From Eledone cirrhosa (taxonomy: Eukaryota), in assembly GCA_964016885.1 (NCBI GenBank), contig OZ024741.1:389298001-389362000 (forward strand): 64,000 bases of DNA. Reading direction: 5' to 3'. Shown one piece after another: positions 38,221 through 64,000 of the stretch. Each line of letters begins with the position of its first letter. The stretch's first letter is position 1. Under the pieces are notes generated by a model. The model did not search any database. It saw only the letters and a list, made by a program, of their open reading frames with translations, and was not told the origin of the DNA. Position numbers and translations under genes: made by a program.

Positions 38221-41200
38221 ATAGCATTAATTGAAAATTATTAATAATGTTATATCGTTCAATGGTCATACTCGATAACGAGGGGGCAGCCATCATGTAT
38301 GTATGTATTTATGTACAACTCCTTTTTGACAGCTGAGTGAACTGAAGCAACGGGAAATAAAGTGTCTTGCTCAAGGACACGACGCGTTCCCGGGAATCGA
38401 ACTAACGACCTCACGACCGTGAGGTGAATACCCTAACCACTCAGCTAGCAAAAATGTAATTCGAAGGTACTCGTATCTGTGGAATGCTCAGCCACTTACG
38501 CGTTAATTTCCCGAACAGGCTGTTCCGCTGATCGTATCAACTGGAACACTTGTCTTGGTAACCGACGTTGTACCAGTAAAACCAATGTACGTATGTATGG
38601 TGAGAGAGGGTAACAGCACGACACAACCAATTAAAGGTTGTCACTTTCGTTTGTTCACTTGTTGTCTTATTGAAGTGCAACACCTCAAGTGGATGTTACA
38701 AAGGCGCTACCCCGAAGGATAGCGAGGGTGATGCGCTATGCATTAATTTTAAAGTTCTATCTGTTATCTCCAAAAATATCATACCTTTCCTGGCTTTACT
38801 AGGTCATGATGTTTCTACCCCTCGGACTTTTATGTCCTCTTTCTCTTTCCATAGGCGCTGAAATCTCATTATCTCCCCGTCAGCTATCTATTCATTTAAT
38901 CAATTTAAACGTCTGTATAGAGCTAGTAAGCCATAGTAGACTAAGGAAAGTATCTAATACTTCTTAGAGTTCAGAAACTAAAAACAAGATATACGGAGAT
39001 AAGTGAATATTAAATTCTAAATTTACATAAAAAAAAAAAAAATTAAAATAATATAAAAGATTTAATAGGAAAGGCCAATGAGGGGCAAAATAAGCATAAA
39101 GAATCTATCAGTTATATTCTATCACCTTTTTAGTTCCCTTCCCTTTCCAAACCATTCCTGCACTTGAACCCATACCTACCGACTAATTGGTAGACGATAC
39201 TCCTCTTCTCCAAACCCTACCCTACCAGATATATTACTTCATTTTATCGACCCTAGAAAGAAGAAAGGCAAAGTTGATCTCGATAGAATGTGTATTCAGA
39301 AATTAAAGTATCAAAGCACCGGAGTAAATATCGCAAAACATTCCGACGCTCTAAGAATCTTCTAATCTATTGCCCTTTCTTTATTAAAGATCATAAAAAA
39401 TGACATTACTTTACGCTATGTTAATGAAAATAATTCTTCTTTTGATATTTCCCAAACAATTATTTCAATGAACTTAAAGCTAGATAATATAATTATTCAA
39501 GGTATAAATTAATCAGCATTCCAGCTTCTATAAAGAAAATTAATCCAGACAATACGATTAAAATAGCTATCATTTTTACATCATGAGTGTAGGTGTGAAC
39601 AGAGCTTTTCTTACGTTATGTCTACCATGCACAAATTCTATTTGAAGCCCACGTTAATATTTTCAGAGAATTACGTATTATGTATTACGTAAACGTCTTG
39701 TTGCTCACCCCAGAGTTTGTTAAAAGTCTAAAAGTCTGTCTCGAGCCAGGAAGCTCACCAGGCCGGTGCTTATCCCAGTTTTCGTGCCGTTAAGCGACTG
39801 GGAGTTCAAGAATCTCCCCTGGAAAAGACACCAGTCAATCTCAGGGTTAAATCCCCAGTTATTTATGGTACTCATTTTTAGCTGTGTATAAGAATGCAAC
39901 ACACAACTCAGTCTAGATACCAAATCCACGACATTATGATCGTAAGTCCAACACCCTTACCACAAGGCCACGCGCTTCCACCAGATTTTGTTAAAATATA
40001 TTTGTGAAATCCTGGTTTCAAACACACTCTTGTCTGCAGTGGTATGGCTGAAAGGTTAAGAGGTTCGCTTCACAATTATGAGATACCAGATCTGATCCCA
40101 ATTCGTGGTTTCAGGGGTAAGCGTTCTTACCATAACCTCAAGGTGATTCAAGCCTTCTCAGTAATATGGCATAAATGGAAAATGTATCGAAGTCTGTCCG
40201 ATTGATTGTACCTGTAATTCAGAAGTCTTGTCGCGTATTGTGTCAAGTTGATTCGGCTTGAGAATTAGTTGCGTATACACATGGCTGGGAAATGTTTAAG
40301 CACTTACACTTTAATTCACATATTGGATGTTCTCTCTCTCTCTATATATATATATATACACACACACACACACACACACACATATATATATATATATATA
40401 TATATATATATATATATATATATATATATATATATATATATATATATATATATATATATTATATATATGTGTGTGTGTATGTATATATATATACATATAT
40501 ATAGGGATAGATAAATATACACGGGTGTATATGATTGTGTATAGAAGATTATATTAATAAAAGGAATTCCAACTTTGTCTGATTTACTCGTTTTATTTAC
40601 AATCCTTTAACATTTATAATGGTATTAGAATGAAATAGTATGGTGGAATATTAAATGTTAAGTGTTAATTGAACAAGTACTTTCATGCTTTCGCAATCTT
40701 CCGGTTCATAATGTGTGGTGACAGTCAATTTGCAATTTTCAACTGTGTGTATATATATATATATATATGTAAGTATGTATGTATGTATGTATGTATGTAC
40801 GTACGTATATATATGTATGTATATATATGTATATATGTATGTATATATATGTATATATGTATGTATATATATATATATATATTGTTGTCAGGTCACCAGT
40901 TGGTGCTACTGGTAACATGTATCCCAGTACAACCTGTCTCATGGTCGGGTCGTTGGCGACTAAACTGGCAACCCACCAAGGTTTCTTGGTGAGGAGGGTG
41001 ACTTTGGACATCCTGCAGGACTAAAAACAAAACCTGTCAAAGGGCAAAGGAGCTCTTAAGAGTCAATGGCCATCCAAAATCACCGGGAGAGATGACCCCT
41101 TAGCCTTTGTCAAGGCAGAATTCTAGGAGAAGGAAAACTCTGATATAACAACTGCAACTCTGATGGTATCCAATGATGTTGACTTGTTCTTCTTTTTGGT

Positions 41201-41493
41201 AAATATCATCTTGGTTAAGAGAGTGGGACTGGCTTTGTGCAGTGCCTTTGCTCACTATAAAAGCTTCACGGCACAGGCATTGCTTTGTATCTGGAGATCT
41301 CTCTGCACTTGTCGTCACATGGTACCATGGGCCCAGCACTATGTGTCAATAATTGTCACAAGTGTAATGTTTGTACCAGAGTTTTCAGGTGGCTGGCTGG
41401 ACTAAAAAGTCACACTCGTTCAGCGCATTGGTAGGGGTTCTCCTACATGGATATAAAGTAGTGGCCGTACTCGAAAGCGAGTTGGCAGCCACC

Positions 41494-62597: not shown

Positions 62598-63205
62598 TCA
62601 TCATCATCATCATCATCATCATCATCAACGTTTAACGTCCGTGTTCCACGCTTGCATGGGTTTGGACGGGGGTAGTCCCACTTGAGGCAAGAGTGATTGT
62701 CTTGCTCGCATAGGACTGTCTGGCAAGTTTTCTACAGTTGGATGCCCTTCCTAACACCAACCACATTTACAGTGTGGGTCTGGGAGGTTTTTACCGTGTT
62801 GCCTACACGGCCACATTACAGCGTGGACTGTGTGTTTTTTTGTCGTGACACCTACACGATCTCATTTGTTTCGGCCTGGATGGTGTGGCACCAACATAAC
62901 TTTACATAGAACGGGGTGGTGTGGATGGGGGGGGGGGTATTTTGTTAGAGATGCCTACTGGCTGTAGTAGGTTTTACTATGTATTTAGGTAAGGCGGGTC
63001 TTCTCTGTTACTGAGTACCGCCAAAGGTTTTGGTCCAGTGACATTGTCTTGGAGAGGTGTAAGTGTGTGAGGTCGGAGTTTATCAGCTCGTCCCAGGTTT
63101 TTCTAGGTCTGCCTATTCCGTGGCTACCGTCTATCTTTATTGCCCTGCACTTTGTTATACAGCTATCGACTTTCATGCGCATCACGTGTCCATACCTACG
63201 TAGCC
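62598..63205 (-). mobile_element. RTE 3' fragment with (GAT)n tail
   Basis: [10 protein letters not shown]...[15 protein letters not shown]...W; 3'UTR ends in (CAT)n on the + strand. Confidence 0.8.
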
Positions 63206-64000
63206 TTATATATATATATGTATATATGTATGTATATATATATATATATGTATATATATATATATATATATGTATGTATGTATGTATGTGTATGTATGTA
63301 TGTATGTATGTATATGTATGTATATATGTATATATATGTATGTATATATGTATGTATATATATGTATGTATATATGTATGTATATATATGTATGTATATA
63401 TGTATGTATATATATATGTCAGGTCACCAGTTGGTGCTACTGGTAACATGTATCCCAGTACAACCTGTCCCATGGTCGTTGGCGACTAAACTGGCAACCC
63501 CACCAAGGTTTCTTGGTGAGGAGGGTGACTATGGACATCCTGCAGGACTAAAAACAAAACCTGTCAAAGGACAAAGGAGCTCTTAAGAGTCAATGGCCAT
63601 CCAAAATCACCAGGAGAGATGACCTCTTAGCCTTTGTCAAGGCAGAATTCTAGGAGAAGGAAAACTCTGATATAACACCTGCAACCCTGATGGTATCCAA
63701 TGATGTTGACTTGTTCTTCTTTTTGGTAAATATCATCTTGGTTAAGAGAGTGGGACTGACTTTGTGCATTACCTTTGCTCACTATAAAAGCTTCACGGCA
63801 CAGGAATTGCTTTATATCTTGAGATCTCTCTGCACTTGTCGTCACATGGAACCATGGGCCCAGCACTATGTGTCAATAATTGTCACAAGTGTAGTGTTTG
63901 TACCAGAGTTTTCAAGTCGCTGGCTGGACTAAAAAGTCACACTCGTTCAGCGCATCGGTAGGGGTTCTCCTACATGGATATAAAGTAGTGGCCGTACTCG

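Follow-up and report, generated by a model that had tools for sequence, protein, structure and literature searches.

The array and its units

We analysed a 64,000-nt stretch of the Eledone cirrhosa genome (contig OZ024741.1, positions 389,298,001 to 389,362,000 of the forward strand; hereafter the window), in which copies of a short non-coding retroelement of ~607 nt (hereafter the unit) are strung along a TA/TATG microsatellite. A BLAST search with the unit recovered ten pieces across 40888–64020, all on the plus strand and 94–100% identical to it (Table 1): five are full length, four are 5′-truncated and one consists of the first 150 nt only. The last of them runs 20 nt beyond the end of the window, and the next 19 kb hold no further copy. 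An earlier note on this DNA had described at least nine co-oriented copies with identical 3′ ends; their number and orientation stand, while the ends proved near-identical, since the hairpin loop is substituted in one of the nine pieces that keep the 3′ end. The 5′ truncations it placed at 45426, 44478 and 54948 are correct and a fourth was found at 51665, whereas the piece at 46675 has lost its 3′ side rather than its 5′ side.

The array spans 23.1 kb, made up of roughly 4.8 kb of units, 9.6 kb of microsatellite and 8.7 kb of three other elements, which the earlier account had missed. Pure spacers between copies measure from 55 nt up to 2,978 nt, in agreement with the ~54 bp to ~3 kb given before, and each carries its own private repeated variants. 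TATG had been said to lie always on the plus strand; summed over 11 spacer tracts, we counted 949 TATG and 13 CATA, a strong bias with a few exceptions. The window copies are mutually 94.5–98.0% identical (mean 96.6%), and the scattered private substitutions already reported are present in every one of them.

Table 1. Features of the array region, in window coordinates.
Feature	Position	Strand	Evidence
Copy 1, full length	40888..41493	+	BLAST
TA/TATG tract of 2,984 nt with TATG on +; TTTA and TACA repeated as private variants	41494..44477
Copy 2, 5′-truncated near unit position 203	44478..44883	+
Tract, TATG-rich passing to TA-rich	44884..45425
Copy 3, 5′-truncated near unit position 50	45426..45984	+
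TA/TATG tract	45985..46674
Copy 4, unit 1–150 only, 3′ side cut by Penelope-like insert	46675..46824	+
Penelope-like passenger; direct terminal repeats ~600 nt; 738-aa open reading frame (ORF) at 48554–50770	46825..51524	−	Atlas neighbours with HTH_animal/GIY-YIG/RVT_1
Copy 5, 5′-truncated at unit position 201	51665..52067	+
TA/TATG tract	52068..53272
Copy 6, full length	53273..53879	+
TA/TATG tract, TCTA variant repeated three times	53880..54947
Copy 7, 5′-truncated near unit position 320; open frame ending in C2H2 zinc-finger remnant	54948..55234	+
55-nt spacer; junction with copy 8 single in genome	55235..55289
Copy 8, full length, internal 10-nt deletion	55290..55886	+
TA/TATG tract, TACG variant repeated four times	55887..56470
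Copy 9, full length, reference unit	56471..57077	+
TA/TATG tract, repeated GGAT and TCTAC variants	57078..58533
Reverse transcriptase (RT) element, 5′-truncated, frameshifted, C-terminal restriction-like nuclease motif	58534..61916	−	Pfam RVT_1, zf-RVT
TA/TATG tract	61917..62597
3′ fragment of a different long interspersed nuclear element (LINE), (GAT)n tail	62598..63206	−
TA/TATG tract	63207..63418
Copy 10, full length, in-window part	63419..64000	+

The unit is an abundant retroposon with sister families

Across the 3.0-Gb genome, the exact 22-nt 3′ end of the unit occurs at least 26,704 times. The reference copy (copy 9) comprises a head (positions 1–190), a segment resembling a LINE 5′ untranslated region (UTR; 191–397), a zinc-finger remnant (486–535) and a terminal stem-loop followed by (CCA)2 (576–607). 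Its coding content is limited to the finger remnant, a C2H2 finger in which one frame ends. The 3′ hairpin folds with z = −2.6, 4 of 200 shuffled sequences folding equally well, and the 3′ end of a sister family gave no significant fold. Scanning the whole unit against Rfam up to E = 10 returned no tRNA, 5S or 7SL head and no known ribozyme, so that a short interspersed nuclear element (SINE) headed by a small RNA was rejected for want of a matching family; a loose home-made descriptor of the hepatitis delta virus ribozyme gave unconvincing hits only.

The terminal repeat of the unit itself, (CCA)2, is found in 186 of 198 copies, with three to four repeats in six others. From the first 20 Mb of contig C1 we drew 106 3′-intact copies, a sample selected by 3′ end that excludes the window and loci L002–L030, which are the best matches to copy 9 and hence biased; 63 of these are 5′-truncated and 43 full length. 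Truncation at the 5′ side with a fixed, intact 3′ end, together with the target-site duplications described below, is what is expected of a retroposon without long terminal repeats, and bears out the proposal that the copies arose by retrotransposition. Truncation points recur at unit positions 48–54, 149–152, 193–205 and 424, several of them right after a target-matching TGT, and may reflect microhomology or truncated source copies. In six copies (L016, L026, L034, L092, L114 and L122) the 5′ part is inverted, as twin priming would leave it.

The first 190 nt of the unit are common to sister short families at 77–88% identity. At least three such families have modules in common with the unit and terminate in GCAGCCA, after which comes ATGT; they were seen in the window at 13907–14093 (minus strand) and at L107, L113, L115, L120, L122, L140 and L151. 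Together with the unit, these families make up a superfamily of modular build that shares one target.

Kinship to an RTE-like LINE

Starting from a longer relative at L035, we reached an abundant young LINE with 36,966 candidates in the genome, the 150 scored being 94–100% identical. Its open frames, of 1,005–1,227 aa, encode an endonuclease, an RT and C2H2 fingers; the 1,227-aa frame is a single ORF with Pfam matches to Exo_endo_phos and RVT_1. Both this LINE and its sister terminate in CCA(TCA)1-6, and the LINE ends on the same AT[G/A]T target as the unit. Where uninterrupted, its 3′ UTR of ~250–400 nt consists mostly of simple repeats and holds a TG/TATG/TA tract on the target strand.

Aligned to LINE copies L182–L187, the unit shows three colinear matches: positions 191–397 to the 5′ UTR (67–69%), 486–535 to the last finger (76%) and 576–605 to the 3′ terminus (87%). 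The unit, itself non-coding, is related to a LINE with one endonuclease-RT ORF, in agreement with the RTE kinship suggested before, and it has the bipartite layout of a non-autonomous LINE, with 5′ and 3′ parts that match one LINE and no coding capacity. The placement of the LINE itself as RTE-like relies on its architecture and motifs, the homologues retrieved for it carrying no element names. A LINE of this RTE-like kind is the likely source of the machinery that mobilised the unit.

Our search found no direct parent LINE with near-identical ends, the nearest LINE being a cousin-level match, and a protein search with the 74-aa frame of the unit yielded no parent LINE either. A candidate parent junction, represented by a loose sequence end, mapped to unrelated DNA on contig C11 and was discarded. 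Protein P0008 was likewise set aside as kin of the unit's finger, being no closer to it than the genome's own LINE.

The TA/TATG repeat is the target

According to the earlier note, every insertion leaves behind a TATG tail, which then serves as target for the next, so that the element would build both the array and the microsatellite. Our data speak against the tail part of this model, since the repeat downstream of the unit behaves as a duplicated or pre-existing target. Genome-wide exact counts on the 3′ side of the unit gave 7,756 instances of (ATGT)3 against 3 of (ATAC)3. On the 5′ side, where no tail can lie, TATG repeats occur 1,980 times at one spacing, against 16 CATA repeats spread over five spacings. 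A rare copy on the opposite strand of the repeat, at C1:420.82 Mb, has CATA repeats upstream and ATAC repeats downstream, the unit being followed there by (ATAC)n.

Reading a target duplication takes a distinctive base in the target; 14 of 156 copies allowed it, and in 9 of these 14 the duplication starts immediately behind the element (offset 0), with a length of 9–13 nt in eight copies and 41 nt in one. Among 400 shuffled pairs, the same procedure returned 11 duplications, 4 of them at offset 0. (The duplication counts, like the tree below, include the biased loci L002–L030.) In the C1 sample, tracts are equally long on both sides, with medians of 51 nt upstream and 54 nt downstream (p = 0.88), and the composition of the first 12 downstream bases tracks that of the upstream side (odds ratio 12, p = 0.002). 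The copies thus lie inside a specific repeat that flanks them on both sides, in one orientation, as in microsatellite targeting: the TA/TATG repeat is the target and not a tail made by the element.

Several facts can be cited for the tail model. AT[G/A]T directly follows the 3′ end in 97 of the 106 C1 copies, the related LINE deposits a TATG-strand tract in its own 3′ UTR, with the unit inside that tract in 2 of 36 LINE copies (one of the two having been found via its unit), and lepidopteran RTEs are described as depositing repeats between target duplications (PMC2887409). Against it stand the offset-0 duplications, the symmetric tracts of matching composition, the ATAC downstream of the opposite-strand copy and the terminal flanks that vary within one dimer lineage (see below). 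We therefore regard it as unlikely that every insertion makes the next target.

Oriented clusters arise genome-wide

Taking the first 100 copies on C1, we found 11 of the 99 gaps to be shorter than 1 kb, against 0.5 expected. All 11 of these close neighbours are co-oriented, and with increasing distance orientation tends towards random. Since close pairs are enriched and uniformly co-oriented, oriented clusters are a genome-wide habit of the unit, in support of the earlier reading. The 3′ ends of the sister family and the LINE, of which we counted 5,320 exact occurrences, join in: 9 of 29 lie within 1 kb of a unit (0.3 expected), all nine co-oriented, a pattern that duplication of one unit cannot produce.

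These results bear on the possibility that the array grew by local tandem duplication of unit and spacer at the DNA level, followed by divergence. Copies on other contigs resemble copy 9 more closely (98%) than do any of its neighbours in the array (94.4–96.9%), the window copies differ from one another by 2–5.5%, and four different truncation points are found along with spacers that are unlike both in length and in their variants. A tree was built from 132 of the 191 collected pieces, leaving out window copies 4 and 7, which lack most of unit positions 201–607; in it, the eight usable window copies need eight label changes and were grouped in none of 200 bootstrap trees. The locus-specific clade, near-identical units and shared spacers of a satellite derived from a transposable element were not found at the array, the approximately unbiased (AU) test on this point being non-significant: with so star-like a tree, it does not reject a single clade for the window copies (p = 0.136). 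Duplication of this sort is real elsewhere, at C4:268.89 Mb, where a two-part cassette is present three times and one pair of copies shows 0 differences in 409 nt. For the array we consider tandem duplication very unlikely, and the scatter of its copies among dispersed ones favours independent insertion, as the earlier note had supposed, within the limits set by the AU test.

Two loci illustrate these processes individually. At L077, a 41-nt target duplication extends over the initial 11 bases of a copy already in place, a direct sign that a new copy inserted just upstream of an older one. At L149 (C4:268892700-268899700), a nine-piece array is built from the repeated two-part cassette through the local amplification of a dimer, and may be a satellite in the making.

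Dimers and limited self-feeding

Exact matches to one dimer junction, internal spacer included, lie at 20 loci on 15 contigs. The upstream copy is kept in 19 of them (10 full length, 9 truncated at different points), the spacer is conserved at 72–80 nt, and among the 20 copies the 16-nt terminal flanks come in 12 versions. Another such junction was matched 7 times, at 5 loci, and in the tree both halves of three such dimers group. Dimers are best read as read-through transcripts that would have been reverse-transcribed from the 3′ end of the downstream copy.

Co-mobilised dimers suggest another route to the array, whose parts might have arrived jointly by way of multimeric read-through transcripts or through template jumping. 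The junction between copies 7 and 8, the only short one in the window and the only one searched, is however found once in the genome, which rejects it as a dispersed dimer, and the other window spacers measure 0.5–3 kb; joint arrival thus seems highly improbable. That the array is an assembly artefact in low-complexity DNA we find barely credible, as ~9.6 kb of simple repeat could have yielded wrong spacer lengths but the array region is free of N (the sole assembly gap of the window, 200 N, lies at 26990–27189), every copy has private changes, the passengers have distinct intact junctions and similar clusters stand on other contigs.

Self-feeding is present in a limited form, and its sources are target duplications, the spacers that move with dimers and the internal 3′ UTR tract of the LINE. 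The feed-forward system of the earlier note therefore survives by this weaker route and not via a TATG tail: some target is added, and this addition does not account for the kilobase spacers. As to the inflation of introns that the note thought possible, the analysis identified no host exon.

A model for insertion into one strand of the repeat

Taken together, we think the following quite probable: the unit, a non-coding retroelement of ~607 nt, occupies one strand of TA/TATG microsatellites throughout the genome; an RTE-like LINE likely mobilises it; and the array likely arose by repeated independent insertion into one pre-existing, expanding tract. The protein of this LINE, or of a close relative, would bind the 3′ stem-loop of the unit and so mobilise it in trans, and its nuclease would nick beside AT[G/A]T. 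Transcripts would run past the 3′ end into the repeat, as the dimers suggest, and the strand might be picked by pairing of an AUGU/AUAU overhang with the nicked strand or by the nuclease itself. Reverse transcription would start at the end of the element, without the copying of a tail. With hundreds of sites available on the same strand of a long tract, copies would accumulate co-oriented. The kilobase spacers likely grew after insertion by DNA slippage, with which the private repeated variants of each spacer are consistent.

Some observations count against this account. The LINE that we found is only 67–87% alike to the unit and may be a cousin instead of the driver. Beyond the AU result above, from a tree whose bootstrap had not settled, target duplications were readable in only 14 of 156 copies, 5 of the 14 being offset by 18–41 nt inside long repeats. 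In 5 of the 106 C1 copies, a tract of at least 40 nt is present downstream only, which fits a tail or insertion at the edge of a tract alike, and a short pure-TATG tail within a pure-TATG target could not have been seen.

Passenger elements and neighbouring sites

Three other elements interrupt the array, all on the minus strand (Table 1). The 738-aa frame of the Penelope-like passenger had no match in Pfam; Penelope-like sequence interrupts the unit near its 5′ end both at window position 46825 and at L042. The RT element at 58534–61916 we take to be R4/Dong-like. Its 3′ end adjoins TA/TATG in the orientation opposite to the unit at 7 of the 7 junctions listed (in the window and at L088, L109, L173, L045 and L002, also L110 and L119), six of which lie outside the window and show this end after TATG-strand repeats; it may be a second family that targets the same repeat on the other strand. 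The LINE fragment at 62598–63206, which had no match in Pfam, is presumably RTE-like.

To the left of the array, at a distance of 2.5 kb, the decayed RT remnant of yet another LINE lies at 36742–38295 along with a sister short element, both on the plus strand in TATG-strand tracts. Farther left, Penelope-like fragments at 2993–4840 and 8720–10251 are flanked by long inverted arms of 224 and 211 nt, and a minisatellite at 2489–2993 repeats a 16-nt word with variable (TA)n inserts. Frames at 16122–16709 (minus strand) and 17830–19482 (plus strand, 551 aa) are presumably Penelope-like as well.

Discussion

The closest counterparts of the unit are the bipartite non-autonomous RTE LINEs RTESINE1/2, WALLSI3, MAR4_MD and Bov-A, with its dimer Bov-A2 (PMC5786205). 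These are described as short, non-coding elements with LINE 5′-UTR-like and 3′-terminal parts that form dimers, as the unit does. The unit differs in its extra 190-nt head, shared with sister families, and in having a nearest LINE that is only 67–87% alike; in its available part, that source does not describe a strict choice of microsatellite and strand.

Insertion into pre-existing simple repeats is shared with a group of microsatellite-targeting LINEs listed in PMC3812793, namely Waldo (ACAY), Mino (AC), Kibi (TC), Koshi (TTC) and Dong (TAA). The ACAY of Waldo is the same repeat class as TATG/CATA, on the other strand. The list as given there contains no RTE, whereas here the main passenger is non-autonomous, with more than 26,000 copies.

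From the RTE side, the Tn-TA signature of BovB, Sauria SINE and Au SINE (PMC6007223, PMC13295347) and the lepidopteran RTEs (PMC2887409) resemble the unit in having a short trinucleotide tail, a duplication that starts with A next to T and 1–2 nt of microhomology; pairing between tail and target has been proposed for RTEs (PMC6007223, PMC13295347). Those elements are, in the accounts available, repeat-creating and not sequence-specific (PMC2887409) or not tightly specific (PMC1291365) in their sites, whereas the unit has repeats on both sides and a strand bias above 100:1. In Octopus vulgaris, RTE-2_OV has an intact single ORF followed by a microsatellite that makes up most of its 3′ UTR (PMC9115989), like the LINE here; the likeness is one of description only and serves as a lead. 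PMC13282606 gives counts of active RTE and Dong-R4 families, and its available text does not mention targeting. Tandem SINE arrays of the blood clam (PMC11481361) are direct arrays of 4–15 short elements too, but their units, reported as near-identical, are linked through one target duplication, with unequal recombination given as the cause, whereas here the units differ and the spacers are unrelated.

We found no report of this system in the open-access literature, and the family may already be catalogued in Repbase or Dfam. Microsatellite-targeting LINEs are known as a kind; what we describe is a strand-specific, microsatellite-targeting system that is RTE-like. A further proposal, which we regard as possible yet doubtful, is that this RTE lineage is a strand-specific TATG-repeat specialist that makes its own landing sites, through LINE 3′ UTR tracts, dimer spacers and target duplications, so that a large share of the TA/TATG tracts and of the oriented multi-family stacks would come from one closed loop.

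RTEs have been described as weakly site-specific and as a source of microsatellites. The RTE-like family found here, whose young copies number in the tens of thousands, instead has a microsatellite as its target and keeps to one strand of it at more than 100:1; the window array is only an extreme case of what the family does throughout the genome. With intact ORFs and a short natural passenger in existence, the choice of site by tail-target pairing or by the nuclease becomes directly testable. In this genome, TA/TATG markers and repeat annotation are entangled with stacks of retroelements.

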